NCBI GenBank assembly: GCA_036172245.1
Contig: JAYWIR010000001.1
Coordinates: 8,246,001-8,310,000, forward strand
Length of the DNA stretch: 64,000 nt
Reading direction: 5' to 3'
From: Raillietiella orientalis
Taxonomy: Eukaryota
Of this stretch, positions 5,728-62,693 are shown one piece after another (position 1 is the stretch's first letter; every line of letters starts with the position of its first letter). The notes below the pieces were generated by a model. That model made no database searches. It had not been told where the DNA came from and was given only the letters and a program-made list of their open reading frames with translations. The translations under genes were made by a program, and so were the position numbers.

Positions 5728-5835
5728 TCACTTTTTTTTGGATGAGATTCCAGCACCCGCATTAAATTTGAAATAAATGATGTCACCATCTTCAACAACG
5801 TAATTCCTTCCTTGTTGTCGGTATTTTCCGGCAGC
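5728..5835 (-). CDS. OLA1: OLA1 last coding exon ([35 protein letters not shown])
   Basis: Not in the ORF track; read manually. Acceptor TTTCACTAG|GCT; TGA at 5730-5728; FKFNAGAG ending as recalled for insect OLA1. Confidence 0.96.
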
Positions 5836-8800
5836 CTAGTGAAACAAAAACATTAAGATGTCAGCACTGAGAGCAGAGTGACTCTGACAAGAAAACTCCA
5901 CGTATCATACAGCGTAGAAAGGACAATTAGAAATAGCCGCAGCGTGTGCAAAAGTTGGGTTGAAAGCACCGCATTAGAGAGAAGCAGGAAACTCTTCGTG
6001 TCGCGCAAAATGGCAAAGCTGAGAAAGTTCGCAGGCGCGGCTCACACTGCCCGGGAACAAATTTAAGTCTGATGTGTATGAGGCAAGGAATTATGAAACG
6101 GGAAATGCAACAAGTTACAGAAATTGGAAGGTGATACTTGGGAATTCACGAGGACGGAGTCTGCGATACAAGAAACCACAGTTTCAAAAACAAAAAACAC
6201 ACAAAAAAACGAGAATTTCAGAAGAGAGTTCTACAATCAGAAGAAACAATTAATTACTTTAACAGCAGCCTCTGACCCTTCTGCTTTGAAGTCGTCAAAT
6301 TTCATCACTTCTGCCATGATGAAACCTTTCTCGAAATCTGTATGAATTTTTCCAGCAGCCTGAGGAGCCTTTGTTCCCTTCTGAAACGAGACATGTTCTT
6401 TGTAAGCACTGATTGTGTGAGTATACTGCTGATTTATATGAGACAGTTTGAACTTTCGTGATTCTCACCTCGAACACGGAAAACAGATAGTGGAGCACGC
6501 GGCTCGAAGTTCTGCAAGACACGCTTGGGGTTTCTTAAACAGCAATTGCAAGAAACCACGGAGTGTCGAGTTTTTTAAACGTAACCTAGCAAATAAAGAT
6601 AACGAAGAGGAAGTCAGGAAGAAGCACATTCTGTTTCTCTGTATTCTACCATACAGCAAGGAACGAAATCTTGTGTGAAAACAACGCGGAGGGAAAAATC
6701 CGTTTCGTAACGAAAACGAACCCTGTAATAGCAGCTGCCAGTTTTTCCCCATTACCGGATTGCCAAATGCGTTGTCTGTACGAAATTTGGTAACCGGTGA
6801 AGTGCCCTTGTGCGTAAGACGGGGATGCACTAGAAACAGCACCCATGCCCGGTCAAGGCACCGATGCTGACCTTGCCCCCACGATGCGCTGTTTCATCAG
6901 ATCATAATGACCTTACGCTCGCTTCCTTTCCGATCCCATTTCCCCCGCTGCCCTCAGCAGATACACAACAGTACTCGAATTCTTATCATGAGATCGCGAT
7001 GGATGGCCCTGTACTTTGTTCCCACGTTCTCCATGCTTGACCTTCTAGCCGGTATTTTCCTTGGAAGCAAAGAATCATGGGAACCAACCTTTGCCTGCCG
7101 ATAACCCTCGCACAACTACACGTTCTTCCTTGTTTTGATGCTTGCGACGACCACACACTTACATGGACTGCGAGAGCATTCACGCAGAACCCAATAACAT
7201 TAACGCACATTGGAGCACATTCCGAGAAGCAGGATGAGTTTGTTTTCCCGGATGGAACAATTTGAGAAAAATTCTTCCTTCCACATTAACTGAATACCCT
7301 GATTTTTCAAAGGAATGAATGCTATGAACAAAGGAATATTGGGGAGTAGAGGGGAGTTGCAGCAGTTTCCTCAAGACTCGTTAACACCTCAGAAAGAGGT
7401 ATCAGCAACGACAGCCACTGCTTATGCATTCAACAGGAAAGAGGCCGCATTTCCACGCTTTGTTGAAACGCTTCAAAATGACTTTGCGGCCTTCTATGAA
7501 GTTCTATCAACTAGCCTTGCTTTCACGAGGCATCAATGGAGTGACCACGCTTTCTTCGAGTACGCAGGATATGTTCACTACTCAATATGGCACAAAAAAT
7601 CTTTACAATCCCGATGGAAGATGGATTCCCCCCCCCCCCTTCCTCCCACAATGCCTCCCACTGCTTCCTTATCGCTCATTAAATATTCACACCGACAACT
7701 GCGTTCCATCTCTCGTGACTTGGGACTCGCTTCCTCCATTTTTGCACACGGGAAAGAACAGTCATGATTTATGGATTTCCTTTCATCCTCTTTCAGCTGG
7801 AAAACCACCCTCTATGGTTCTATTGAATGGAAAATTTACCCGTTACTGATTCGAGCTCCTGAGAATTGGAGCTACGCAGTGTTGACGTTTGCACGTTACA
7901 GTGGCCACTACGGCTTCCAAAATCCTGTGTCGAACATTTCCCAGCTATGATGTGTCCTTGGCATCAGCTGATTGCCTCGTCTCCGCAACTCGTCCCGATA
8001 AATTCGTATGAACTAATGAATTGGATTGAGGTCGCTGAGGAAAGGTATCCGCCCACGCTTTTGCAAGCGTTTTACAGGGTGAATGGATTTCATGCAGCTG
8101 GTCATCATACTTTTCGAGATGCTCCTGGCTCCTAAGTACATCGCTTCATCACAAAAGCTCTTACTGGAACTCGAAGCATCTACCATTCCGTCGGCATTCA
8201 TTCAACGGTTGTACCTTGAAACCCAAAGGCCGTTTTTTGTATGGGTAAAACCGCATCGAATGAGAGAGATTTCCTAACCATGCTTTGGACTTGGGTTAAC
8301 CACACTTAGTTCCCAAGTTCCCTGCAGTAACTGCGAGGAGCCAAAGAAAGACAGAGGGAAGAAAGAGGGATTATTCGTCCTCTGCTTGCGCATATGCTTA
8401 TGTTCATTTTGTGTTCTACGTTATGTGACTCGCTCATACAAAGCTGCTTGCTTTCGAAAAAAAGCATTCGCGAGAAGAAAGGGATGTGGTCACTTTTCCC
8501 TCCCCTTTGAGGAAAAATGGTACGAATACGATGAAATGATGAGGATACAAACGACAGGTCTACTAGAGACGCTTTGGACCTTCTGTAAAGATGAGATTTT
8601 TTCCTTGGATAAAAATCCCCACCGGCGAAATTTGCCTTCGACCAAAAAAACCGCTTTCAGGATTTCCTGTGCATTCTTTCAATGGATTTGTGAGCCAACG
8701 AACATTTGAAGCCTTTTTCTTCTTCTTCTTCTTCAAAATGCTGCAAGTAACACGGTGCAACCACCACCAGAACGATTCCTGTTCATACATCCTAGTTTCC

Positions 8801-11800
8801 CATCATGTTTTCTTTCGCTCATTTTATTTGTGCCCTCCAGAAGTTGTGCGAGATACCATCAAAATGACGTTCCTCCATGGATGCAATGAATGATGCGAGG
8901 ACAAAAACGGCTCCACATCTGCAGCCAATTCGCAACGCTCTTCCTTATCCTTGCAAACTTTCAACACAGCTTCTAACACAAAGTATTTTGCTGCACGTTT
9001 CTTGCCAAAAATCCAAAGCTCCGACCAACGGCCACACTAGAGCATCCTTCAAGCGTGTTAGTCTTCAGGACATTTTGTTTCCGTATTTCGTTCAGGCATC
9101 TTCCCCTTTTAGTCATCCCATACGAAGTCTCGAGACTTGACAATCACTCCTATGAAAGACCATTCAGACGAAAACCAACCGCTTGAGCGCGCTGTGGGTG
9201 CTGAAGTGGTTTTTTTAAGAACGAAAAAAAATAAAATAAAATCACAAGACTTTTAGCATCTCGTTGCGATGGGAATTTTCCACAATTCCACAGCTTTTCC
9301 ACTCGCACTGCTGCAGCATCCACAGTTCGTTAGAGGAATTCTTGTGCATGAACGCACTTGTGCATGTTTCGGTCGAAAATCCGGCGTGAATGTCCTTAAA
9401 TATCACACGAGCCGGTCCTCTTCATTTTTCTGAGTCTGGGTTCCCACCTGGACTTAGAAAAATGAAAAGACGACCTCCTCAAACCCGGATCTTCGCACTG
9501 CAACGACGACGCGAACGTTCTGATCACGACGTGCTTCTAAATCGAAAGAAACAAACGTCCATCATAGCAAACCACATCAGACCATCTGGTGGCTACGTCG
9601 AGATACTTCACAAGAATTCAACGTGGGTTAATTATATGAACACATACACAGGCTTCTATAGTCGGCATGCCTTAGCGAGCTACAGACACGTGCGTGGGTC
9701 GCATCCCGAACTACTAAATGATTAATCGCGCATCCTTCTTTACCAGTTCAATCACAGCTCAATCGATCAACTCTGAATCCGATGAGGGTACATCCAGCTG
9801 CCCGCAATAGCAACAGTAAACACATGGAAGTTTTTCACAAGTGAAAGGAACTCATTGGTGAACGAAATCAAGTGATCATTTCTTTCGCTAGTCGGCTAAA
9901 TGATTGATCTGAGACACGAAGGTCAGCAATTCCGTTTTCCGTGAAACGGGAGATTTTTGCACGGACTCCAATGGCAGCCCTATGCCGTGGAACCTGTGCA
10001 AAACTGAAAGCCGGCGACAGCGCAATTTTTGGAAGTGATTCAAGTGAAGACGTCCCTAGTTAAATCTATCGGTAGGTCGTCGTCGGACAAATTTCAGTTC
10101 GAACATAACAAACCTCTACCCTTACGCGACAGGTTCTGCTGGAATCGCAATGCGTCATCTCAACGAAAGTTGCTCCCATTCGCAAACGTACATGAGGGAG
10201 GGCGGACGATGCTTGCGGTAGATGAAAATGGATGCACCGAAAACCAGAGCTATCAGGTTACTCTGACCGACGGTTTGCAACATGCCAGTTCGGGTCGAAA
10301 CGAGCGCAAGCAAGCAGAGCTTCACTTCGGAAGCGCCAAACTCTCGTAAAGACGAGGTTCCGAGACTCGGCTGCTGACAAGCAAACGAAACCCCAACGGA
10401 AAACCTGCGGCCAAATGAAACTAAGGGACAGAACTTTCTGAAGGGAAGGACTCCCTGTTTGAGAAGTTAACGGCCATGATCAGTCAGAAGATATGCATAA
10501 TTAAACAACAACTGCTCCAACCCCTACCTCATGAAAGGGATTCGAGGCAGGCCACGAAAGGTAACAGATCCGCAAAAGCTGACCTGGAGAGCACATGAAA
10601 GATGCATAGCAAATACGAAAGTGCACAAGGGACTACTGAAACCCTTTATGCTTGCATCGGCCATGAATTTTTGACTGCCGATAAACCAGTATATCTAGAC
10701 TTATATAAATAGTTAATTTCATTAAAGTGACCCAAACATATTAAAGAAACTCTTGCACAACTTTCATACACATCTGTCCCGTAGTGCTTTTGCATGTGCA
10801 CGGTCTTTCTGGGGCTCCAGCAGGTAAATCGCACTTACCGCAAGCAAAATTCACTTATTTATCACAACTCATCCAGATATTTCACAGCATGGTTCAAAGC
10901 ACGCGTGCACGGTACGAAGGGCGATGTTTCTGGTCCTTCATGAGCAACGAAGGCGCCTTCTGCTCCCAATGCAGCGAAATGGGCTCAGTTAAAAAAACGC
11001 CAAACCTTCAGAGATTCGACATCGCGAGAAATCCATCATGAGCTTCGAGGAAGCGTAATCCTGGGAGCCGTTACTATGGTGCTTACGAGGCACCTACTCC
11101 ATAAGCAAACGGAATGCAGCATACGTCTGTAAACAACAAGCAGTTAGAAGAAGCACGCATGGGCAGCACATTCTGACTCATTGTCTCAACAAAAGTTCTT
11201 CCTGTGACCGCGGAGCGAGATCGGAGAGGAAACGAGCTTAAGGCACTGCCGGAGCGACAGCATCTTTAGCCGGTCAGAAACGAAAAACCTGCGGATCCTG
11301 CAACAATTTCGTGCTTTGCTGTGGCGGCATGCAAACATTGACAAAACCACTTCCCGACTTTATTTCCTCTGTCGAGAGCGCGAAAGCACTCTATGACCAT
11401 CAGTTCACACCTATGTAATGTTGGATGAATGCACGTACATGGAAGGCATGCCGAACTGTGCTCAATACGGCGTTCAATATGACTAAGCTATGAGCTAACG
11501 CGAGGTTCTGTCTTCTCTTCCATCCTTTCCTTTTTTTCTTTTTTCCGGCTTGATAACTGATAAAAATGAATGATGACAGATGGCCCACTTCAGTTATGTA
11601 AGAAAGCCTTCCCTATAATCATTCATCAATTATCATAACGCAGTCGTTGTTTACAATAAAGAAAATACATCCAAATTATATGGTACGCAGGAAGTTGAAG
11701 GTCACGTTTTACGAGACGTATTTACACACAGCCTCTGAGCGCGCACTGAGAGCAGGCGCAGGAAAGAAACTTACCTGCACTGTCCAGGCCTTCACTTCAT

Positions 11801-14800
11801 CTTCGCCGCAAGTGAAAAAGTAGATCAGCTGCAAAGCCCTGTAACCCTGTACGATTATCTTCTCCAAAGCGCTAAAATATATATATATATATACCACAGT
11901 ATTTGAGGCAGGTACGTGGCGATGGAGTAAGCCAGGCGCTCAAATTTTCCACCGAGGATGGACGAGGGAGACACGGAATCTTCCGATCACGTGAACCTTG
12001 CAAACGGAGACCACACGCAACCGTTCGCTGCCACATAAACACGTGGCGGATGGCGTGGTCGGCCGTGGTAGGTAGGAGCGGACATAAGAGATCTCTCTCT
12101 CTCGATCGAGGAGTTTCACTCCTTCACTCCCAAAGGATTCCGTTATCTCCTTCGCTCATCCTTCGCGCACACATTTCAGTTCATTTCAGGCAAGGATTCT
12201 CCTTGACTGTAGAGCATCCCATTTACTGCACTTCAAAGATTCAACCAACAGACCTGTTTGTTCCGTTCTCTTTCAGGTACGCCTCCTTATCCTCTTCGCC
12301 CATGTCTGCAAGTTTGTTTTCCAGGCTTCCGGAAAACGGGATGATGGTTTCTCCATAACCCGATTTTGCCACGTGTTGTTTCAAGGGAACCAACCTGCAC
12401 ACGAAGATGGAGATCTCAGTCTTCGGTGCAACGCACAAAAAAGATGTCTGCTGTTCCTTCCTCAACGTTCACGCACACGCGCCAAGCGAATAGCCATCCG
12501 ATCGCGGCACCACGGGGAGAGGAACACTGCAGCAAAACGCAAAAGAATCGAACTTTTTGACACTCTTTGATTAACGAAAATATTTCCCAGCTGCGGCACG
12601 CAAACAGGAAGCCGGTTGCTGCGCATACGGTGAGAAGTGCTTCCGCGAAGCAAAACAGAAAGAACAAACCAGCTGCAGAGAACAAGCCATTTCCTGTTTC
12701 CGAGACGGCTGCTGGATTCCCTTGTCGTTCACAGCAGGAAAATTAGCGAAGAGTGGTGCGGACGCGAACCACGGGGAAGGCACGAGCGCGCCCGATAAGG
12801 CGGGGCGGCATCAGGGGCATAGGGAACGAAAGGAAAAGACTCTGGAAGACCTTCCTCCTGTGGCGGGAGGCGGGCATCCCTCGCGCGCACTTTCGCGCAT
12901 CGCTTCTTGCGAGCCGTTCGGGTTTTCGGTTCACACACGGTGTGGAGCTTACTGGATGGGAAACGGATAACGAGAGGGCGCGCAGTAGCGGCATGCCCCC
13001 TCCCCCTCTTCCCCCTTTTCTTTGTCTGATCTGAGAACGTCTCCTCTGCCACCGTTCGTTCTTCAAGGACTCGGCGAAGAAACAAGGGAAAGCCGACATC
13101 ATTCCAGCTCCTTATTGTTCTTCAACGGCAGCATAAGATTATCAGAATCTCCAGCGTTTACGGAGCAAATCGGAGGCGACCTGATTCGAAAGCAACCGGC
13201 AGGGGAAAGAGGAAGAAAAATGGATGCACAACGCAAAGGAACGGCGGTTACGAGTCTCGGAACATTCCCGCCCTCCAAACGCGAGGATTCGTTTCAGCGC
13301 TTACTTTTTGTAATCTGGCTGGACATGTTTGAGGATGTGTATGTGAAATGTGCTGTGGGAGAGAAAGAGAGAGAGAGAGAGAGGGGAAGCACACACATCG
13401 AGCAAAAGAGAGAGAGAGCGCGCGAGATGCCGGGGAAGACACGAACGGAGCCTGTAATTATAAACTTTTATTCACGTTCCATTCATGATTTCCAAATGCA
13501 TGTTATTATCTGTGTGAAGATAAGGGAGCTGATCGGAAGTGAACAATATCTGGTAATAACCTAAGAGTAATTTTTCTCCAAAGCAGTTTCTCCTTCCCCT
13601 CCCCCCTCCTTTTCCCTGCTTTTTAATTTGCCTACTTTAAATCAAACAAACCATTTATAAAACGAGGATCGTCGGCCCGCTGGACTAGAGCGCCTTCCAG
13701 GAATGCTAAACTATTCAAAGCAGGAAAACGAAGTCGGGCGCGGTCTGACCAGTTGTTCTGGAGTGGCCGTCGGCACCGAGGAGAATACGTGTATGCGCGC
13801 ACCGGAAGCGACTTCTTCCTTCCTTTGACTATCATAGGAGACACTCGTACGATGCTCAACCGGGAAGCCAGCGATCCTCGCAGCGCTCCCCTTCCGATCA
13901 ACAGCTCGCTTCACTCCGGAGCCGGAACACGGGACATGTGGGAATTCGGGATGAGCTCTCGGAGTTGGACGCGCACACAGCACTCTTGCGATCGCGTGCC
14001 ATCTAATCTGACGCACAACATACCTTGCATATACTTCTCCCCCCTCCCCCCCTCAAAAAAGTCATAAATGGTTACCATTTGTTTTTCTTCTTAATAAAAT
14101 CCTTTTCCGACATATTAATGAGATATATCATAGGTTTTGCTGTGATGAACAAGTGTTTATTCAAAACCTCAACCTATAAGAGAAAATTTTCAAAAACACA
14201 AAGGTCAAAGTGCAAAGTCCGCGAAAAAGCGTCACAAATTCAGCAAAAGGAGCAATCTCAGTTCAGATCCCATAGCAGCAGTCTGCAGCCACAGAGACCC
14301 ACAGGGATCTTAGATGCAGCATTGGAAAGGTTTGCAGACTTGGAACGCACTCCGGTAGTAACCTGCGTGGCGACTGCGAGTCAAACGGGAAAAACAGGTG
14401 CCGTTTGATAAAACTGGAGAACACTCCCCACGTCCAAGGGAGATATCCGAAACAGAGAAAATCATGGGAATGCTCACGGTATGGACAAATAATTTCAGTT
14501 GGAAAGGGAAAAAAGGGAAACGGAAACAGCGAAGCAGATCGGGCATCGCATGACACAATCGGATTGAGCTCACAGATTGCAGGATCCAAGACATTCATCT
14601 CAATCGATTCTTGGTACCACATGGAAAACCGTTCTCCCCCATCCTGCACATAACTACACATGAATACGATGATGAAATGACGCGAAGATGTCACAGCATT
14701 CTATGAAGCTGCGAAAACAACAAGAAACACAAACGTCCACTTGAGGGTCATAACGAATGGGTGAAGAACGAACAATGAGTTCGTTCTTGCAATGCGACTT

Positions 14801-17800
14801 CCCATGATCAACGGCTGCACAGGTCTAATTTCACGTTTGTTTCCGAAACAGTGATGTCATTTCATTCACCTGTCTCCAGTGCTCTGAGACATGCTGACAT
14901 GTAAGTGGCAGCCACCCTCTTGTATCCGGTAACACCTTCAAGAGCACTCTTCAAACGTTCCAAGACACTTAAAACCTATTATTCACAGTGAAAAATAGTG
15001 GATCCATAAGCGCAGCGACACCTAGTCATCGCACTCTATTTGCTACGCATTGTCACACTTGAACTTGCTTCTGATGGAAAAGAAACATTTCGAGAAATAA
15101 AAAAATGATGAGCGGTTAGCCACGAAGAGACCACTGAGAGGACCACAATAGCACCTTAAACCCAAATAGCTAAGAGAACGAGCAACAGAAAGAATAGCAC
15201 TATCACCACCACCTGGACCTCTAAAAAGCGATCGGAATTCCATTCTCGGGAAAAGCAAGAGCTTAACTCAGAAAAGATTTCTATTAGCTTCAATTAGTAA
15301 TCAAATGAAAGTATGAGGCACTGGAGTAGCAAATCGCACGGTGTAATAAAACCATTTGCATTCTTGATACTTAAGTTTTCATCCCAGAACACTGCAGCTC
15401 AGAAAACACCATGCGTAAAACAAGGTGCATATAGTCAACACTTTGGGATTTATTTTCACAGCCCTACGATTAGAAGGGAAACCAATTTTCGCGAGAAAGG
15501 ATTTTTCCTAAGCGAATGCCACCTGAGGATAAACGTTAACGGAGTCACTGCTCATACGCAAAGCAGAAGAAAGGATATTTTGAGGAACATTTCGAGAGAA
15601 GGATACCATTTATTTTTTTTTTCAATCATGAATTGTTGATCATTTTAACTAAAATAAATGAAACTTAAGAGTTCTATGCATAATCTCCCATTCGCAAGCA
15701 CACACAATCGAATAATACCTCTTTTTCGTTCCAGTTACCGTAGCGAAGATGCTTCTTATCCACGGCCACAAAATCTTTAAGCTTGGTCAAAATTGTCTGA
15801 AAATACCACAGAGATTTGTTGCAAAACATGTAGGTGTCGTTCACGTAATGTTGCTTCACTAACTCTTACACACATTATTTTGAATAAGGCACTCTTACAC
15901 ACGCTCACACGATGTACGCTCATCACAATGTAAGGTAAACAACAAGACGGCCAGTCATGAAGGATTAGACTTACGTATTCTAGCTTTATCTTCTTATCAC
16001 CACTACGCATTGCATTTTTATCTAACTTTTCTAAAATTCCTTTTAAGTGCTCTTCATCTTTTTTAAGCAACTCTTCGTTGATTATGTCTATGTCACGTAT
16101 GGGATTCACATCTCCCTCTACGTGTGTTACATCGTCATCCTCAAAGAGTCCTGCAATGTATGAAAACATTAGTTGGAAGATAACGTGTGGAATATTCCAT
16201 ACATGAATGATTCCGTTAACGAATGTGCAAGACCACATGGACGTGATTCGATGAACAAGAATCACTTTAGCTAATGGTGCTGAGCAATTCCTTCGTTTAT
16301 GTCACTATAAACGATGCATTGTTCATATCCCGAAGGATTTTTGGCAAATGGAAAAATGAAATGCACAGCCTGCATCCAATTTCCAAAAACAGCAAGCAAG
16401 AATTTCTTGAAAACGAAAGATTCATTCCAAGAACTCCATGCTCTTTTCACTTTCGTGCTAATCACACATTTGTTATTAACACACGGTACTGATAGCAACA
16501 CTAATCCGTGGGAGAAAACACTGCAGTAGCGCCTCTTCAAAGTCTCGTTTTGCGAATCATTATGAAACATTTTTTACAAAATAGTTCCAAATTACAATAA
16601 TATGGTACTTTTATATTATTATAAACAAACAGGAAGTTTTCTGTTCTCTAACCACACATCCAAGCAGTTGATCTGTGAAGGAAAGGAAATTGAGCATCTA
16701 TGTTTAGCAAAAAAACAAGGCTAATCACGAAGCAACACCTACTCAGCATGAAGCCTTCTATTGTCTTTGCAAAACTAAAACCATTCGTCTTGGACGGGAG
16801 ATGTGATAAGGCTATAATTACAAGCACCGCTTTGACTTTAAAGGCACATATAAGAAAAGGGTTCACTAATTGGGGAAGTGTTACAACACGCTTAGCCTAT
16901 CATTAGAGCTACGTAAAGGTGAGCAAAGACAGACACCCACTTGCTCCCAACTGAGCTAATAAGAAAGACTTTGGTCAACACTTTATTTTACTGTCTCTAG
17001 CACAATGCCGGTAATTAATTTCTTGCCAACATAAAGTCGGCAACGGAATTCAATCAGCTCATGTGATCCGGGAATGAGTCAATCGGAGTCAAAAATGGAA
17101 ACGGAGGAGGGATTCAGCGATCCTCCTCTGAGACCACTCTGCGTCCCTAAACAAGAGACGTCATTAACCACGCTCGACACATCGTACGATCATTCCGTTG
17201 CTGCAAAGGCAATCATTTCGTTGAGAGGATTACAGATTTCCTGGTGATCATGACTAATTTACGCGAAAGTGCTCTTTACAATCACTGTTTACGGTTTCTC
17301 AGACGAATCTTTCCCTTCCCCGACCAGAACAGTCCCCTCTGTTCCTTTTACTGGCCAATAGCATCAAGAGACAAAACAACAAATTGTGTGAAACAACGAC
17401 GCGAAGTTCTAGGAGCATAATATGATATTGAGAAATGATAAATTCATCAAGTTTCAGTTCATTTTTAGGTCTTTCTGGATGAAGAACAACATCCGCATCA
17501 ATTTTTCATCAACTCTGGAATGCCCAGAGCATATATCTGTTATCGTACCATTGTACGTTTACCAAGAATCGTAGGTGTTGCATCGCACACACGGTACACC
17601 ACAAAAGCCGATGTCCAGCACGAACACATTAGTTGTACAACAAGACTGAGTTTGCTTTTTTTGATGGCAAGTGAACATAGCAATCAAGTATTGAAGCTAC
17701 GCTGTGTTTGCGAACATTCGAACGCAACATGAGTCACGAAACCAACACGAAACAGCCGGCTCATAAGAGAATGTTCAAGTCAACAAGTATATAAAGCATA

Positions 17801-20800
17801 TACTGGTCAGGGAGATACACACCGCAGGGTACAAAAAAAATATGCCTTAAACGACGCAAGACTTCCGTACGGAAATTTTTGATATAGTTTATTTTACATG
17901 AATATGATTTCCCTTAAGAAATCAAAGAAACGAGTACACTCCATTCACACGTGCACATATATACACATACAATACACAGACACACGATTCTGCACCTACG
18001 CCAGAACGAGATGCTTTAGTGTAGCAAGTGTTGTTCCATTACCAGACATGAACTGCTCGGATTCCTGGCGCAGCCTTCACGACTTTGCCTTACCACAATG
18101 TACTGAATGTTTGTTTTCTGCCTAGCACAGTAAAACATGTTCATCACGTATAATAAGGTGGTACGCAATGATTCATTCCACCACCATTTCTACAGAATGC
18201 CGTCCATTACTCGCCTTTGTGTGCTGCATCCCTAGAAGCAAAGGAACTAACAAACTCGTCTCCACCATTGCAACATTTCAGGAAAACGAAAGAAAGAAAG
18301 AAACAACTCGTCTCTCATTTACCAACACCTGACTGTGCATTTAGCAAACCTACGAGCGTAAGCGTGATGTAAAGTTCGGTGAGGCACAGTATTAAAATAC
18401 CATCTGAAGAACCAAAGAGTTCGGCAAAACATGTTTGCTTTTTTGAAATGAGAGAGCATTTTCGGGGAAATTTTCACCAGCGATTCGGAAACAAAAAAAA
18501 AACACTCGATGGTTTTACAGTGCTCGCCGGCGAAAGGTGTTCCCAGAACCACGTTGAAAGCAAACAGTTCTTCAACCGCACTCCGTGCGAACAGCTTGTT
18601 TATTAATCGTGCTTTTGAAAAATCCGAGTTCTCGAATCTTTGTGACTGGAAAATAAAATCACGGCACATCGCTTCCGGTTGGGTCTTACATCGCTTATTT
18701 TAACCCCTGTTTTGGCCATTAATCGCCGAAATGCCATCTGAAAATTTAATAAACCAATCGGAAGATTCAGATCAGAACCACACGTATCCTGAAGAGAAAT
18801 AATTTATGAGAGTGCACAATGTGGATCGGGAGGAAATATGCTAGACATGAAGAGACGCATTCGACGAAAAAGCATTGACTCAACTACAGTGCTACTGACT
18901 GCACAAAAGCGGACTACCCATTATTTCCAGTCAAGGCAGTATCCCACTCTATGAAAGCAGCGAGAGACATAAGACAGTCTCTCACCATGTCCACCACCAT
19001 TGCAACATTTCCGAGAAAACCAAAGAAAACAAATGGCAGCATTCTTCATCGGAAATAATTTTGGATCTCAAATCGCGCATGAATTCAATTCAGATTCCTT
19101 TCAGTGGGGAACACGACACGACATGAATGGTAAAAGCATGGCTCAGACAGCCTGCAGTGCACGGAAGAAAAAAGAAAAAAGGAAATCTAAGACTTTACAT
19201 GGAAATCCCATCCGTCTTAGAGCAACCATAGCATCATGCGCAGAAAGGGGACAATCCGTATCAACCTGGAGACCAACCCAACTGTGCCTCGGACATATCT
19301 AAAAACCTAACACACGAATACATTCATCTGTGAATTTCGTTAATGCACGCCATTCCATTTTCCACTGGTTCTTGGATGTTCAATAAGAAACTGCGAATGC
19401 ATGCAGGCGAAAGAAAACCGAATCGGCGGATTTTCTCAGGACTTCTTCACATTGCACTTTGAGATGGGCAATCTGCAGAAATCAGTTGTCCTCAGAAAAT
19501 GCGCAGCGAACATTTTTTGCGAACATTTTAATGATAGTCAAATCTTGAAGAGACCGGCAAAGTGTCTTTCGATGTGCCACCACAAAACTTGTCTAATGCC
19601 GCGATGATTCTCGACATCTTAATCGCACAACAGAAAACTACGAAGTTCCCATAACGGACTGCTTCCACGATACAAAAACAACGAATGTTGCATTACCTCC
19701 TTCTAGCAACTGTGGTTCACAGAATCCCGTTTGCCAACTAACTGTAAATGCAAAGACGGATTATTGTATGAAGAAGAAACACACTGAAAACGTACAAACG
19801 TTTCCGCGCTGATGTGAACCACTGTGATTTTCCCTTGAGGCTGAAGAGTAAGTGAAACTTGCTGAGACGTCACTTTAATGTGCGAACGCTACAAAACTAG
19901 CCTGTGGCAGCTATTAGAACAGAAAATCATCGGTTCAAATCCAGGAAAGCACACCTGTAAGCAATGTGAGATTTATCAGCATACTGCGGAAGAATCAACC
20001 TGTTCCTTATAACAAGAAAAGTAATTCAATCCACAGGGTGAATACAACAGGTTAATACAGAAAATTGCTTTCGACTATGATACATCATTTCGTGAGTGAA
20101 ACGAGCATCCCTTGTGGAGCCGACTTTGCTGCAACGTGAAGTTGCGATCCGTTTCCACACTATTCCTAAAGCATATCGGAGAATCATCCTCATACCATTT
20201 GTTAATTTACCACCTAATATGAGAGTTGTCTATTAAGTGATTACAGTATGATAGTTTGGAATAACAAGGTATTCCAAACTAAAAATAATTGGGGCTCACA
20301 AAGCTGAAATGACCACTTGTAGTACCATGTAGGTAGGCTTGGCCAAGCAAGCAGTGAAAAGCAGAGATGTACACACAAACAAAAAGAAAAAAAAGGATCT
20401 TGTAAAATACACACAACCTAGCGGATACTGCGTTGTGTTTTCTAATTGAGAATGTGTCCAATTTTGCTCAGAGTGACTTCGACGCCACTGATTTGGGAAT
20501 GTGAATTTTCGTTTCAACCCGAGTCCAGCTTCGTTTCAAATTTGCCGTACACACTCTCGAATTTCGAGTTTGCAACCCATTTTCTTTCTTTCTGCCCTTC
20601 TTTTCCAATTTTCTTCTAGAAGTTCAACCTCTTATTTTTCGCGAATTCCAGGTTACGATTAGAATTTACTTTCTTCGGAATCATCGCGATGGCTTGAAAG
20701 AAAAGAATATCTCTTTTCGAAATATGCGACTCTCACAGTTATTACATCATAGGGCAAAGTATCGGTTCCTTTCAATAAAGAAATTCAGCTTAATACTTTG

Positions 20801-23800
20801 GTAAGATACCCACAATGAACTCAGTCTGCCAGTTAACTAAACTCCACAATACACATACATGTTCATTTTTCCTCTTTCAAGACGTTTTCAGAACCACATG
20901 TGTATGCTAGAATTACGTTTACATGAAACATAATTCCCGAATCTCGGACCGTTAGGTGAGCAGCCTGACCCCAGCACCCTCAAGATCCAGTCCACTCCCA
21001 ACTACCACATCGGATATTCGAAAAGGATTCTATCCCGGACCCTGCTGGAAGTATGGAATCCAGTGTTGACATTGGATGCCTGTCCCGATGAAGAACCTCG
21101 AACACTGCCTTTTTTCGTGTTGCTGTCCTCGGAAACACGAAATTCTACTCTTAAGCTAGGAGCATAGCACGAAGCTTCGAGAGCTGAATTCGCTGATTTG
21201 GAGCAACTCACACAGACTATCTTGGAAAGCATCACAAAAATGTTTGTGATGATTCCAGAGCAAATGTGGAAACGATCCCTGCACAGGGACGAAATTCAAA
21301 TGAAAGCACATCAAACATTTCAAAACAGAGCTACATCGTCGAAGTAACGCTTACTACGGAGACACACGAGGGTTGTGTTGCGCTATTTGCAAAGTCAGCA
21401 AAGCCCTTTGCTGAGAGTATGGGAAAGCAATGGACTTTTAATATTTTTTTTTTTTTTTTTTTTCTTTTTTTTTTTTTTACAAAATTAAGAAAAATTAGTA
21501 CACGGGGAACAACAGTCGCAGATATTAAGATTTCTGCACATTCCGGATACGAATACACTTTCGGAAAAAATTCTCTTCGAAGGGGGGCAAGGGTAATTCC
21601 TTTTGCTTTCAAAACAGTAGTGGCAGGGAAACTTTAAGGATGCCAGTCCTTACTTTAAAACTTGTGAATGCTTCCCATCATAAGGATTAAGTAACCGACG
21701 GGGTTCACATTCAGCATTTTTTAAATAGATGATAAATTCGACAAACCAAAAAACTAGGATAAGGGAACTCTCAATCAACACAACTCTGGTAATCCCTTTA
21801 CATGGTTAAATTCAATCAAGGAGCATAATAGCTCCATAAATTAAAGCACCAAACTGCACCTACATTTCCCCATATAGGAGCTACCATGATTTTCAAAACA
21901 TGACAATCCATGGCTGATACAACGGCTTCAACCATTCATCACCACAAATGCAAGCTACACGAGCTCTTTCTAATTACAGATTTCATATTCTCGTTTGCAT
22001 AGATTGTCGGCAAAACACCTGTTAGAGACGAAACTTTATGATATCAAAGATGCGATAAAATACATTTCGGGGATCACCATCCTGGGATGCGCTGGAGCAT
22101 TTAGAAGCTTCAACTGCTCATGCGGCTCTTCATGGAAACTTCGGTGTTAATGCAATTTTTCTACTTCTGTACACCAACAGTGTTCCAAAGAGACTACAGG
22201 GGCCCTCCTGGATTGCACAAGTGATGGAAAAATAAAATGCCTGCCTAATTTTATAGTGATGAAAACTGCTGAAAACGTATGTCATGTTAAGTAATTGTTC
22301 AGTATATCTCTCGTTTGTGAACGATACCGAGTTTCATTAAGATATTACTTACAACAAAACTTAACAAACGGAAATACAGTTTAAAAACAGGGTTTTTCAG
22401 CTGATGATTCAATACAATATTTTTCGGATGCATTACTTCATTAAAACGTGTTTCTTCTCGGTTCGATTTTATGATCATTAAGGTAATATTTTCGAAATGC
22501 TAATTTAACAGGTACAATGCATCAATACACATACCTGTGGTTACAACTGTATTATTAACAGACACATAAATTCTGCAACATGTACGTTTACGCGCGTAAG
22601 TATGGTCGAAAACAACAGCATCATGCAGTAAAAAGACAATTGCTTAATTGTGAACAACAGTTAATGCTGATCCGAAAAAACTTCTAACAACAAAAAGAAA
22701 GGAAAACGTTGTAATGTCAAGTTTAAGCAAATATTCTCATAATCCAATGTCCTAGAACTCATGCTACAGCGACAACTTGCATGCAATTTCACCAGACATG
22801 TAGTTCATTATTGGAATTACATTTATGTGTTCATGGATCTCTGCTATATCGACTACGTATTTCCAAAATTAATCTATTTTAGTAGGGTAAAAAAAAAAAA
22901 AAAACGACCTATCTGTACCTTGTACTCGTTATAAATATGATTCAAAATAAACTTTGTACAAATTTTTTTCTAAATTAACTACATATACTCTATGTTTCCT
23001 CACTGCAGTGCTGTTAAGTGCCTTAATCTCTGTCAACTAATAAGCAAAAATTATTATAGTACTGTGGAAACAATAAATATGGGTTTATTATTTGTTGGCA
23101 TATGGAATGAAGACTATCTGAATTTGATTCCAATCATTTCGTAAAATCATTTACCATTTGTGCAAACTATAACTATAAAATAAGTACTTCAGGATACTAT
23201 AGGAATCCACATACATCCACACAAACATCTCATTCTCTAAATGAATTTTCAGGTTGAATATGTACTGAAAACAGAATCATTTAGAGCATTTGCTGCTTGA
23301 TTCAGATCTATGAATTAAAATGGACCCAAATTTACAATAACAAAATGCTTGTTACAGAAAACTCTAAAAATATTTTCTACAGAGATCAGAGTGTAGTTAC
23401 TTATGATATTAAATTCTAGGGGCATCAATATACTTTGCAATATAAAATAAAAGTGAAGAGATTGCATAATATTTTTAAAAGAGAGAAAAAGTATTTTAAC
23501 TGATCTTGTTCTTTCAATTAGTAGTATGTATGAATTTCTTGTGTAAATGCAGTGTGCATGAGTTGATCCTGTTAATAATGCATACTTTCAGAGGACAGTG
23601 AGCAGAAACAATTTTCTAATTCAAATTCAAGAAACTTACTGCATAAATGAAAAATGGCATCACATGCTTTTATGTGAGATAAAAAAGCATTTCCTAATCC
23701 TTGTCCTTCTGAAGCGTTTTTTACCAACCCAGCAATGTCAACTACATTTAAAAAGGCAGGAACTTTGCTAAAAATAAAAAGAAACATCTAAAAACTGCTT

Positions 23801-24258
23801 CTAAAAAAGAAGTCATACATAGGAAAGAATATATACCTTATGGGCTTGTAATAGTTGCATAAATAATCAAATCTTTCATCTGGCACTGCTACCCTACTTA
23901 CAAAAACAAGACAGATATAAATACGTAACTTCACTTGCAAGAATCACAATCAACAGTTCGCTTATTTTCTAGTTTTGCTAAAAAACCAAAAGCCTGGTTT
24001 CAATCCTCTGAGGCTTACTCTAAACCCTAGCATATTTATGCTTCTTTTGAAATAAAAAAAATACTTATTTTCATTGGGATCTATTGTACAAAATGGAAAA
24101 TTATCTGCTGCCACCTGACATTTCGTTAGAACATTGAAAAACGTAGACTTTCCCACATTTGGGAGACCAACGATCCCAATTTTTAAATTCGTTCCAATTC
24201 TTCCTATTATTGGCACAGATTTAACATCACTGTCATTTTGTTTCTTGGGTGCCATCAT
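5728..24258 (-). CDS. OLA1: Obg-like ATPase 1 (YchF family), complete spliced CDS: join(24069-24258,23837-23897,23640-23767,15975-16150,15719-15796,14076-14173,12254-12394,11775-11871,6258-6380,5728-5835); 1200 nt, 399 aa
   Basis: Exons join in compatible phases into one open frame. It has the P-loop [35 protein letters not shown], the TGS-domain [21 protein letters not shown] and the C-terminal [18 protein letters not shown]. Introns 2-9 are GT-AG; the intron 1 junction is ambiguous by 4 nt (see findings). Confidence 0.96.
6258..6380 (-). CDS. OLA1: OLA1 coding exon 9 ([41 protein letters not shown])
   Basis: Not in the ORF track; read manually. Acceptor TTTCAG|AAG, donor AAA|GTAATT. Confidence 0.96.
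7410..8280 (-). mobile_element. Possible decayed pogo/Tigger (DDE_1) transposase remnant in OLA1 intron 8
   Basis: Broken frames give, in the expected order, RCGFTHT, GDEAIS*...IIAGK, RVVFQLK, YLMSDKE and [11 protein letters not shown]. These resemble pogo-family GF..T, DETG...VIA.KG, PP.VIF.K, Y.MS..GW and F.KCGI.P. Matched by eye only. Confidence 0.4.
11775..11871 (-). CDS. OLA1: OLA1 coding exon 8 ([33 protein letters not shown])
   Basis: Acceptor TTTTAG|C, donor CAG|GTAAGT; conserved YFFT.G.DEV.AWT. Confidence 0.96.
11877..11893. repeat. (AT)8 microsatellite abutting the OLA1 exon 8 acceptor
   Basis: Minus strand reads GG(TA)8TTTTAG|C. Confidence 0.9.
12254..12394 (-). CDS. OLA1: OLA1 coding exon 7 ([46 protein letters not shown])
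   Basis: Acceptor GTGCAG|G, donor AG|GTCTGT; IPFSG motif; phases match both neighbouring exons. Confidence 0.92.
13358..13420. repeat. (GA)n microsatellites in OLA1 intron 6
   Basis: Two GAGAGA runs directly visible. Confidence 0.85.
14076..14173 (-). CDS. OLA1: OLA1 coding exon 6 ([32 protein letters not shown](W))
   Basis: Not in the ORF track; read manually. Acceptor TCTTATAG|GTT, donor TG|GTAACC; includes the YchF-type G4 variant NxxE (NMSE). Confidence 0.95.
15719..15796 (-). CDS. OLA1: OLA1 coding exon 5 ([26 protein letters not shown])
   Basis: Acceptor TTTTCAG|ACA, donor GAG|GTATTA; aligns with the K.K....KK..R...WN.KE segment of OLA1. Confidence 0.92.
15975..16150 (-). CDS. OLA1: OLA1 coding exon 4 ([20 protein letters not shown]...GDKKIKLEY)
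   Basis: Acceptor TTGCAG|GA, donor TAC|GTAAGT; conserved F.D..VTHVEG.V.P.RD. Confidence 0.96.
21444..21478. repeat. Poly(T) tract with one interruption in OLA1 intron 3
   Basis: Directly visible. Confidence 0.85.
23640..23767 (-). CDS. OLA1: OLA1 coding exon 3 ([42 protein letters not shown])
   Basis: Acceptor TTTTTAG|C, donor A|GTAAGT; contains the G3 motif DIAG. Confidence 0.96.
23837..23897 (-). CDS. OLA1: OLA1 coding exon 2 ((S)[19 protein letters not shown]); starts at 23897 or 23893
   Basis: Not in the ORF track; read manually. Matches the conserved RVPVPDERFD.LC; donor AG|GTATAT at 23836. Confidence 0.93.
24069..24258 (-). CDS. OLA1: OLA1 coding exon 1 (MMAPKK...GLPNVGKST...FCTIDPNE); ends at 24069 (AT donor) or 24065 (GT donor)
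   Basis: ATG at 24258 and a second at 24255; translation carries the G1/Walker A motif and switch I of YchF/OLA1. Confidence 0.95.
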
Positions 24259-60337: not shown

Positions 60338-61735
60338 TTACTCGCTGCTGTCCGCGCGGGGGACCGTCGTTCCACCTCCGGCCGCCCTATGTCGCTGCTG
60401 CTGCTCAACCGAGCCGGGAGGCGGCGGTGTGTTGACGGACGAGGAGGTGCTGACGCTGAGCGCCTCCGACTGGCTGTTCTCGGAGTCGCTGCCGCTGCTG
60501 GAGCTGCCGCCCCCCTTCTTCTGCCCGTTCGGACCGGCTCCGGGCCCGCCGCCCATGCTGTGCGTCTTCACGTGCTTGGACAGGTGGTCGGAGCGCATGA
60601 AGCGTTTGTTGCACACGGGGCATGCGAAGCGCTTCTCGCCCGTGTGCGTGCGCAGGTGGCGCTGCAGCTCGTCGGAGCGCGTGAAGCGCTTCCCGCAGAA
60701 GAGCCAGTTGCACACGAAGGGCCGCTCGCCGGTGTGCCAGCGCAGATGCGCCTTCAGATGGGACGTCTTCCCGTACACCTTCCCGCAACCGGGGATGTGG
60801 CACGAGTGGATGTTCTTTTTGCGGAGGTGCGCACCAGCGGGGCCGAGCCGCTCAGCCTCTTGGCAGTTGGGGCAGTCGCACGTGGCCCGGCCCGTGTACC
60901 TCCTCTGAGAGCGGGGGGAGGGCACTTGGGACAGGGAGCCTTGCGCTGCCCCCAAGCCGAAAGGGGACGCTCCTTGGGCCACTCCAGGGAGCATGGACTT
61001 GTAAGTGTCCTGCAGCAGGTGGACCGTGTTGTTGGCGGCCAGGGTGTGACTCAGGGAAGGGTACTCGGCCGTTGTGGCGCCGGGATACTGCGCCAGCTGG
61101 CTGGCGGCGGCATGCATCCCGGGAATAGAAGCCGCGGTGGCGCCGGATACGTCCAGCCAGCCGCCGGCGGCTCCGGCAGCCGCTGCGGCGTGCACCTCCC
61201 ACCAAGGGTTGGCGCTGGCACCGCTCAGTTCCGGCTTGATGGCTCCGTGTGTGGCATTGAAGGCCGCCCACGAGTCGTAGGGGTGCGCCGCGGCCGCCAT
61301 CCGAGAGTACACGGAGCTCAGGTGGGCCGCGCTCCCGTCCATCTTGCCCAGGAGGCCTCCGGCGCCCGCCGCTCCGGCGGCGCCGCCGGACGCCACCGAC
61401 ATTCCCTGCGGGGAGTCCATCTGGCCGCAGCTCATGGCCACCGATGTCACCGACCCAGGAAAGTACAGCTCTCCCCCGTAGGAGGAAGACGTGCATGGCG
61501 TAGCCGCGGCCATCACCGACGGGGAGCGCTGGTAGCCTGAGGGGCCCAGGCCCCTCTGGGACGGACTACCCAGGCACAGGGACACCGAGGACGGCATCGA
61601 CGGATGCTGGGACTTCTTCCAGGGATGGAACCCCTTCCCGACAGCTGCGTCGGCCAGGGGAGGGGGACTCTTGCTGGACAGCTTGTTGCACTGTGCCGCC
61701 AGCATGGCCAGGGGCGTGCTCCGGAAGGTGTGGTC
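60338..61735 (-). CDS. Sp8: Sp6-9 main coding exon ([15 protein letters not shown]...RADSSE*)
   Basis: Acceptor CTCTTGTGCTTGCAG|GAC at 61736/61735, just before the Sp box, the usual intron position in Sp8/9 genes. Confidence 0.96.
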
Positions 61736-62693
61736 CTGCAAGCACAAGAGGGGGCCGTCGAGTGGTCTGTCTGAGTCGCCGAAGGAGGGGATCTCCCGCT
61801 CGCCACTAACCCTTCTCTTCCGGGACGGCGGCAGAGGAGAAGCCGCAACGAACCTTCCCTGCACGTCCCCGACCCCGCACGCTCCCTCGGTCGGGTTCGC
61901 ACCCGCGCTGCTCCCCGGACGAACGCACCCTCGCCGACAGGCTGCCCCCTTCCCCCCGGGTGTAATTATGGAGCCCATCGTCGCCGCGGGGGCTCTCTCC
62001 GGGGGAGCCAGGGCGGACCCTAACGGGACTTGTCAGTGTCCTTCCCCCTCTATCGCGAAACGCGGGGAGCCCCGCCGGTGGCGACAGGGGAAGGGGAGGG
62101 GGAGAGCGCGCGCGGGGGTCCTCCACGTCTGGGAGAAGTCTGTCGCTTCGCGGGGGACTCGGAGAGTGCGGGCCGGAAGGAGCAGCGGGACGGACCCCCG
62201 CGGAGCAGGCGGGGGCGACTCTGACGCGCTCAACCCCCTTCCGGGAAGAAGGGGATCCGAGGCACTTGGTCTCAAGGGAAGGGGGAGAGGGTTACCGCCG
62301 GCATCCCGCCCCCGCGTGCGGGGATGGGTGATGGAGGAGGAGGGGGAGGGGTGCAGCCATCTCTTCCTCCTTTCCTCGAGAAGGAGGGGAGGGAAACGAG
62401 GAAAGGGCGAAGGGGTGCGCGGCCCCTGCCCCGTCCCGCGGCAGCCCCCCCTCCTCTTCGGGAGCGCTGGATGGAGGGCGCCTCTGACCGCCCCTTCTCC
62501 CCTCCGTAGAGGGAGGGGAGGGAGGGTGGCGTGGCTGGTGGCGCGTTGCGTCACACGGACGGCGGCACCCTGCTGACCGCCCCTCGGAGCAAAGGGTCTC
62601 GCGGGCGGCACTCACCGAGATGGACTTCTCCAGGAGTCCCGTGCCCGCGTTGTAGAGGTCGGGACGGTTGCCCAGCCCGAGGTCTGTCAGCAT
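60338..62693 (-). CDS. Sp8: Sp6-9 (Sp8/Sp9-type) zinc-finger transcription factor, join(62616-62693,60338-61735); 491 aa
   Basis: Sp box [30 protein letters not shown]; Btd box [19 protein letters not shown]; three C2H2 fingers ([73 protein letters not shown]); 880-nt GT-AG phase-0 intron. Confidence 0.95.
62616..62693 (-). CDS. Sp8: Sp6-9 first coding exon ([26 protein letters not shown])
   Basis: ATG at 62693; consensus donor TCG|GTGAGT in phase 0. MLTD...LY...KSI resembles the recalled N-terminus of insect Sp6-9 (Drosophila Sp1). Confidence 0.85.

Follow-up and report, generated by a model that had tools for sequence, protein, structure and literature searches.

The question raised by this locus is where the first intron of an OLA1/YchF gene begins and ends. 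In the window (the whole 64,000-nt stretch of Raillietiella orientalis DNA that was analysed) this intron can be read either with canonical GT-AG ends or, a few bases away, with AT and AA ends, and the encoded protein would carry Asn-Lys after P-N-E in the first case and Ser-Arg in the second. For major-type introns beginning with A, a C as the last base is generally considered necessary. The first-pass annotation of this DNA had proposed that the AT-AA register is the real one.

Results

The OLA1 gene in the window

OLA1 exons were matched in the window by tblastn, and the whole gene was then built in each splice register. The gene lies on the minus strand, with ten coding exons running from 24255 to 5728 (Table 1) that encode 398 amino acids followed by one terminal stop. 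Pfam searches with the exon translations found both the G domain (MMR_HSR1, PF01926, E 2.4e-11) and the YchF C-terminal domain (YchF-GTPase_C, PF06071, E 1.8e-16 and 1.1e-07), the combination that defines membership of the OLA1 family. The protein is approximately 70% identical to insect and scorpion proteins and approximately 65% identical to those of annelids and vertebrates, which makes an arthropod source likely. Each of introns 2 to 9 has GT-AG ends.

Two other features of the window may be recorded here. Within intron 5, right after exon 5, there is a decayed copy of exon 6 (15582-15692, minus strand) that matches a homologue at 37% and contains one stop; judged from its sequence, it may be what remains of a tandem duplication of the exon. 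Further away, at 60338-62032 on the minus strand, lies a 564-aa open frame with three C2H2 zinc fingers (Pfam), the finger block being Sp/KLF-like in appearance. GC content around this frame is 60-69%, as against 32-45% in the 5' half of OLA1. In vertebrates too, OLA1 adjoins Sp genes.

Table 1. Coordinates of the OLA1 exons and of the competing forms of intron 1, in window positions
Feature	Position	Strand	Basis or remarks
OLA1 coding exon 1	24069..24255	minus	ATG at 24255; last base A at 24069 is the first base of the Ser codon; Pfam MMR_HSR1 on the translation
Intron 1, AT-AA register, 171 nt, phase 1 (proposed real intron)	23898..24068	minus	Sequence; orthologous AT-AC/AT-AA introns; L005 transcript product reads S-R
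Rival GT-AG register, 171 nt	23894..24064	minus	Donor TAA/GTATTT, acceptor GTAG/G; would yield N-K
Second rival register, 168 nt	23897..24064	minus	Same GT donor with AAG acceptor; would yield N-N-R, one residue longer
5' splice site ATAAGTAT	24061..24068	minus	+2 to +8 are the major-type consensus TAAGTAT; sole deviation is A for G at +1
3' end of intron 1	23898..23921	minus	Pyrimidine-rich, 15/20 bases before the last three (75%); ends TGTAA; no U12 branch-site motif
OLA1 exon 2, 61 nt	23837..23897	minus	Begins GT AGG GTA GCA, completing Ser, then Arg-Val-Ala-Val-Pro-Asp; donor is a normal GT; tblastn match begins at 23898 with S-R-V
OLA1 exons 3-10 (rest of gene)	5728..23767	minus	
OLA1 exon 3	23767-23640	minus	Gene model
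OLA1 exon 4	16150-15975	minus	Gene model
OLA1 exon 5	15796-15719	minus	Gene model
OLA1 exon 6	14173-14076	minus	Gene model
OLA1 exon 7	12394-12254	minus	Gene model
OLA1 exon 8	11871-11775	minus	Gene model
OLA1 exon 9	6380-6258	minus	Gene model
OLA1 exon 10	5835-5728	minus	Includes stop

Three in-frame registers for intron 1

Read on the minus strand, exon 1 ends CCC AAT GAA A, with the final A at 24069, and is followed by ATAA (24068-24065) and then by GTATTT from 24064 onwards (the letters after 24069 are ATAAGTATTT). At the other end the intron runs through TTTTTGTAA to 23898, after which come GTAG (23897-23894) and a G at 23893; put differently, the letters before exon 2 are CTTGTTTTTGTAA, and exon 2 then reads GT AGG GTA GCA GTG CCA GAT GAA. 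It can be seen that the AT-AA and GT-AG registers lie 4 nt apart and that each excises 171 nt. With the AT-AA register the coding sequence is 1197 nt long, giving 398 amino acids and a stop and reading P-N-E-S-R-V-A-V-P-D; with the GT-AG register it is again 1197 nt and reads P-N-E-N-K-V. Joining the same GT donor to the AAG acceptor at 23897, formed by the intron-final A together with the exon G that follows it, gives a coding sequence of 1200 nt that reads N-N-R-V. All three registers stay open to the natural stop. The first-pass annotation had described two 171-nt registers differing in S-R and N-K, together with this third option, and sequence and gene builds agree with it exactly.

It had also argued that the supposedly intronic GTAG encodes Ser-Arg. 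This is true of the sequence, but as an argument it is weak when taken alone, because any intron ending G-Y-A-G before a G would do likewise, and two of the eight other introns of this gene do end GCAG. The rival donor GTATTT, moreover, shares GTAT with two real donors of the gene (GTATAT and GTATTA), although these have AG at -2/-1 where the rival has AA. The window sequence alone does not lift the reading above chance; the case rests on comparative and transcript evidence from other species.

Orthologous introns in metagenomes

We scanned a metagenome collection with a degenerate pattern that called for C-T-I-D-P-N-E and then A-R-T-R-A-G, with A or G permitted at +1. As the pattern forced R-T-R-A-G at +1 to +5, the scan is blind to U12-type or other donors, and conservation at +2 to +5 does not count as evidence. 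It returned 51 loci, a count that overstates the number of independent lineages because several loci are near-duplicates (L033 equals L043, and L006, L031 and L047 share 93% of the intron). The exon ended A/ATAAGT in 40 of these loci (ATGAGT in one of them) and A/GTRAG in the other 11. Rough taxon assignment made three of the loci ant-like and one cockroach- or termite-like, and placed L005 and L019 nearest to Daphnia, at 81%.

Exon 2, recognised by V-x-V-P-D, was within reach in 30 of the 51 loci; in the remaining 21, all with AT donors, the contig or the 3-kb flank ended first. These 30 introns comprise 11 GT-AG, 15 AT-AC and 4 AT-AA forms, the last being L005, L019, L027 and L031, so that 15 of the 19 relatives with an AT donor end in AC and 4 of 19 in AA. 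Together with the window, 31 out of 31 code for S-R in the register GAR A / intron / GY MGN GTN.

We then asked of each of the 20 AT introns (window included) whether a canonical reading lay close by, searching from -15 to +15 nt of the donor and from -40 to +15 nt of the acceptor. In eight of them no in-frame GT/GC-AG pair was found in this span, so that in these the protein can be made through the AT register alone. A shifted GT-AG pair occurs solely where the Arg codon is AGG (10/20) and, judged from these sequences, is a by-product of the GT at +5/+6 of ATAAGT and the AG of that codon. The AAG is present in all five AT-AA introns (four loci and the window), which means that a canonical pair always exists there; the window itself has two canonical in-frame alternatives.

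Some further features of the loci were seen in passing. Eight of them (L006, L011, L021, L026, L031, L046, L047 and L049) come from one organism in two metagenome assemblies with many OLA1 copies, some of which have a damaged exon 1 or 2. Compared with its 93%-identical sisters L006 and L047, the L031 intron ends in AA in place of AC. In all 11 GT-type loci (L003, L007, L012, L013, L017, L018, L025, L028, L036, L038 and L040) the in-frame reading breaks just before K-S-T-F-F, which suggests, at the level of sequence, that another intron separates G-x-x-x-x-G from K-S within the P-loop codons. No such break is seen in the window or in many of the AT-type loci.

Transcript and protein evidence

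One of the AT-AA loci, L005, reads GAA A / ATAAGTCTTC ... TCTCTCCAA / GTAGGGTAGCAGTGCCT and so has the same AT-AA ends as the window. The two are identical over the first 16 bases of exon 2 and have both canonical alternatives in common. One L005 exon, used as a query, retrieved P0122, a protein of 396 aa from a run assembly (longest contig 1372 nt), which is identical to L005 in every exon, the only mismatches being read-through residues at exon ends. Since the L005 gene spans approximately 1.8 kb and its introns are full of stops, P0122 derives from spliced RNA. It reads P-N-E-S-R-V-A-V-P-D-D, and the AT-AA register is therefore found in the mRNA of a species with a window-like architecture. 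The P0122 cluster is a single sequence. For L019 no identical protein was found (best match 88%), leaving L005 as the sole AT-AA locus with a matching transcript. By analogy, the window intron presumably behaves like that of L005.

A search with exon 1 listed 120 relatives, in which the residues after P-N-E were SR in 63, NK in 21, GR in 16, AR in 13 and NN in 5, with 2 unmatched. Nearly all of the NK and NN entries are genome annotations of arthropods in which the reading continues into the intron (N-K-Y..., from AAT AAG TAY); a few models skip to a wrong exon, and in a few others the residues are N-K-V-P-V-P-D. From three protein searches we also drew up a transcript-like full-length set of 109 proteins (at least 376 aa, longest contig about 4.6 kb or less). 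In this set SR occurs 77 times, AR 25 times, GR 6 times and NR once, with no NK or NNR, whereas all nine N-K-V proteins lie on genome contigs of at least 121 kb and are genome annotations. Likewise, the transcriptome-derived Panstrongylus protein reads S-R and the genome-annotated Rhodnius model N-K. The artefact of forcing GT-AG, against which the first-pass annotation had warned, is thus visible in public data. Models that read N-K were noted for Oratosquilla, Arctopsyche, Petrolisthes, Nesidiocoris, Oedothorax, Rhodnius, Centruroides, Eretmocerus and Ladona.

Asn in the Ser position does occur in real proteins, as the transcript-like P0143 and Bemisia both read N-R. Among the Daphnia models (P0153, P0155 and P0180), D. 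pulex and D. carinata read S-K and D. magna reads N-N-K, one residue longer; judging from the proteins, the latter would be expected if an AT-AA intron were forced into a GT...AAG join.

Splice-site signals of the AT introns

The donor of intron 1 in the window differs from the U1 consensus only at +1, as had been pointed out for ATAAGT, and the match extends further, from +2 to +8. The sequence TAAGTAT is complementary to the 5' end of U1. At the positions that the scan pattern left free, the AT donors of the relatives have T at +6 in 29 out of 29 distinct sequences, as against 5 of 9 GT donors, A at +7 in 19 of 29 and T at +8 in 22 of 29. This retention of +6 to +8 looks, from the sequences, like compensation for the odd first base. 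In addition, C is found at +9 in 20 of the 29 distinct AT donors (ATAAGTATC). Among the AT loci examined at +5 to +10, which include L002, L008 and L016, three donors carry the U12-like hexamer GTATCC starting at +5, four bases into the intron; no branch site to match it was found.

The signals of the minor class were not seen in the window, in agreement with the first-pass annotation: there is no ATATCC donor, and neither the RTATCCTT donor nor a TCCTTRAY motif 10-26 nt from the 3' end that mark U12-type introns was found. Over the 30 loci and the window, TCCTTRAY with one mismatch allowed was found in the last 60 nt of none of the 31 introns, and the orthologous intron tracts are pyrimidine-rich. 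By contrast, several hallmarks of U2-type (type II) AT-AC introns are present in the window, namely an AT start in the S-R register, A at +4, G at +5 and T at +6, a pyrimidine tract and no U12 branch site; the exception is the 3' end, which is AA and not AC. The same A +4/G +5/T +6 match is seen in 40 of 40 AT loci, although +1 to +5 were set by the search pattern. From these signals we infer that intron 1 of the window is removed by the major spliceosome.

Relation to known introns

A close counterpart is catalogued in FlyBase R6.04 (Crosby et al., 2015, PMC4528330, Table 3 and File S4). It is a coding intron of CG1354, classed there as AT-AC and U2, which is backed by an RNA-seq junction and for which no similar alternative is listed. 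This gene, the fly orthologue of OLA1, carries the name Obg-like ATPase 1 in a source name of our protein search. The fly and window introns thus have in common the gene family, the AT start, the coding location and, for the fly, a U2-type classing like that suggested here; they differ in that the fly intron, at X:9779242-9780241, ends in AC rather than AA and is 1000 nt long rather than 171. On the strength of the arthropod-wide series, the CG1354 intron probably lies at the same codon as intron 1 of the window.

Major-type AT-AC introns are rare. Sheth et al. (2006, PMC1557818) count 24 in five species, three of them, TAF2 included, being AT-AC II introns of the fly, and Crosby et al. (2015, PMC4528330) list four AT-AC (U2) introns in the fly. 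The type II AT-AC introns of SCN4A/SCN5A and TAF2, in the passages on them (PMC1557818, PMC2831892), resemble the window intron in having A at +1 in an otherwise good major-type 5' site (G +5, A +4, T +6) and no U12 branch site, and in being conserved between species. They end in C, however, whereas the orthologous OLA1 intron occurs as GT-AG, AT-AC and AT-AA. According to Lin et al. (2010, PMC2831892), the U2-type machinery permits little freedom at the first and last bases, and such AT-AC introns are 'trapped'.

The AT-AA pair itself has been described as a variant of the minor spliceosome (Sheth et al., 2006, PMC1557818; Larue and Roy, 2023, PMC10639083). Those introns share their terminal dinucleotides with the window intron, but they have a ATATCCTT donor and a TCCTTAAC branch site, and the window intron has neither. 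A search of the literature treating AT-AA, AT-AC and U2-type together found no description of a major-type AT-AA intron, and one of main-text literature found none that links OLA1 or CG1354 with an AT-AC, non-canonical or minor intron, CG1354 appearing solely in File S4 of Crosby et al. (2015); Olthof (2024, PMC11347168) likewise yielded no AT-AA or OLA1 passage. There is precedent for the annotation problem in the GA-AG intron of ITPR1, which alignment wrongly places, with mismatches, at a false GT-AG (Parada et al., 2014, PMC4176328). As in OLA1, a nearby canonical pair captures aligners and annotation and produces apparent base differences from the genome. The ITPR1 case is human and involves another non-canonical pair, and the false differences in OLA1 would be two A-to-G changes that resemble recoding.

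Alternative explanations

A reading that needs no unusual intron is that the canonical GT-AG pair (24064-23894) is used and that OLA1 in this organism truly has Asn-Lys after P-N-E. The GT and the AG are in place and in frame, the two GTAT-type real donors of the gene offer a parallel, Asn at the first position is known from real proteins and Lys at the second from annotated Daphnia proteins (S-K). We regard this as decidedly unlikely all the same, because the donor TAA/GTATTT has no G at -1 or at +5, this GT is also part of the ATAAGT donor of each relative and is unusable in frame in 8 of the 20, and N-K would stand where all 31 orthologous loci, window included, code for S-R. The dipeptide is also absent from the 109 transcript-like proteins, and L005, which has the same option, yields a transcript product with S-R. 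Pairing that GT (24064) with the AAG acceptor at 23897 would keep the Arg and lengthen the protein by one residue (E-N-N-R-V). The AAG carried by every AT-AA intron and the N-N-K of the D. magna annotation, one residue longer than in D. pulex and D. carinata, speak for such a join; however, it is very improbable given a donor just as weak, the S-K of the D. pulex and D. carinata models, the S-R of the L005 product and the lack of N-N-R or N-N-K in any of the 109 transcript-like proteins. The first-pass annotation had further wondered about a regulated step or a two-isoform switch. Two or three registers would then be used side by side and give S-R and, as a minor form, N-K or N-N-R. In favour, these alternatives keep the frame, and for two of the four AT-AC (U2) introns in FlyBase, CG4433 and CG10750, a closely similar GT-AG splice is listed as an alternative (Crosby et al., 2015, PMC4528330). 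Against this, FlyBase gives no similar alternative for CG1354, the P0122 cluster holds a single sequence, and no N-K is seen among transcript-like proteins, although assembly drops rare variants and a minor form might be missed in this set. The idea of an isoform switch found no support here and we think it unlikely.

Two other proposals concern the machinery rather than the register. Removal by the minor, U12-dependent spliceosome is favoured by the fact that AT-AA is the commonest non-canonical end pair of that class (Sheth et al., 2006, Table 2, PMC1557818; Larue and Roy, 2023, PMC10639083) and by the GTATCC found from +5 in three relatives. It was rejected as extremely improbable, since the donor is ATAAGTAT and not ATATCCTT, TCCTTRAY is lacking within 60 nt of the 3' end in all 31 introns, the pyrimidine tract is normal, and FlyBase classes the CG1354 intron as U2. 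Alternatively, editing of both terminal adenosines to inosine might make the AT-AA register look GU-AG-like to the spliceosome; for human, AT-AG and GT-AA splice sites that undergo editing have been tabulated (Parada et al., 2014, Table 2, PMC4176328). This seems extremely unlikely, as two near-complete editing events would be required and the AT-AC relatives cannot work in this way, yet give the same product from the same donor.

Discussion

Taken as a whole, the evidence makes it probable that intron 1 of the window (24068-23898, minus strand) is an AT-AA intron with major-type-like signals, hidden behind a GT-AG register, and that it gives P-N-E-S-R-V. The AT-AA reading, as put forward by the first-pass annotation, is supported by the series of orthologous AT-AC, AT-AA and GT-AG introns, by the S-R product that P0122 represents for L005, and by CG1354 in FlyBase. 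What is new is the AA end of a major-type-like intron; the AT-AC form in fly OLA1 was already catalogued.

On this AT-AA reading, intron 1 would be the local form of an old intron that, in many arthropod-like genomes, interrupts the Ser codon of P-N-E-S-R-V behind its first base. Its donor, A/ATAAGTAT, would be recognised as a normal major-type 5' splice site, because all positions but +1 fit the consensus, and the first step would cut before the A. An ordinary pyrimidine tract would mark the 3' region, and the second step would join at the base that follows the terminal AA, since an A at the start of the intron is paired with a last base other than G (C in most relatives, A in the window). 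The resulting mRNA would carry the codons for the conserved Ser-Arg. By accident, the GT that lies four bases into the donor would then make a canonical pair with the AG contained in the AGG codon for Arg, and software that insists on GT-AG would pick this pair and translate it as Asn-Lys.

The practical consequences reach beyond this gene model. At least nine public arthropod OLA1 models carry an apparently false Asn-Lys, and roughly two dozen others are either truncated or continue into the intron. In RNA-seq, aligners restricted to GT-AG would in addition report two false A-to-G 'edits' in a conserved GTPase.

A wider proposal, on which our confidence is evenly divided, is that one ancient OLA1 intron occurs as GT-AG, AT-AC and AT-AA at the same codon position and that the AT-AA form has arisen at least three times: in the window, in a clade of Daphnia-like crustaceans (L005/L019/L027) and in L031, whose sisters end in AC. 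Should all three forms be removed by the major spliceosome, an A-A pair of first and last bases would be tolerated in vivo. A conserved housekeeping gene with a terminal A in several lineages, and with a transcript in one, bears on how stringent the major spliceosome is at the first and last bases, and also on how introns that start with A change type. Were the proposal true, major-type AT-AC introns would not be 'trapped', AA ends could serve as an intermediate between AC and AG, and a natural series would be at hand for testing the first-last nucleotide rule.
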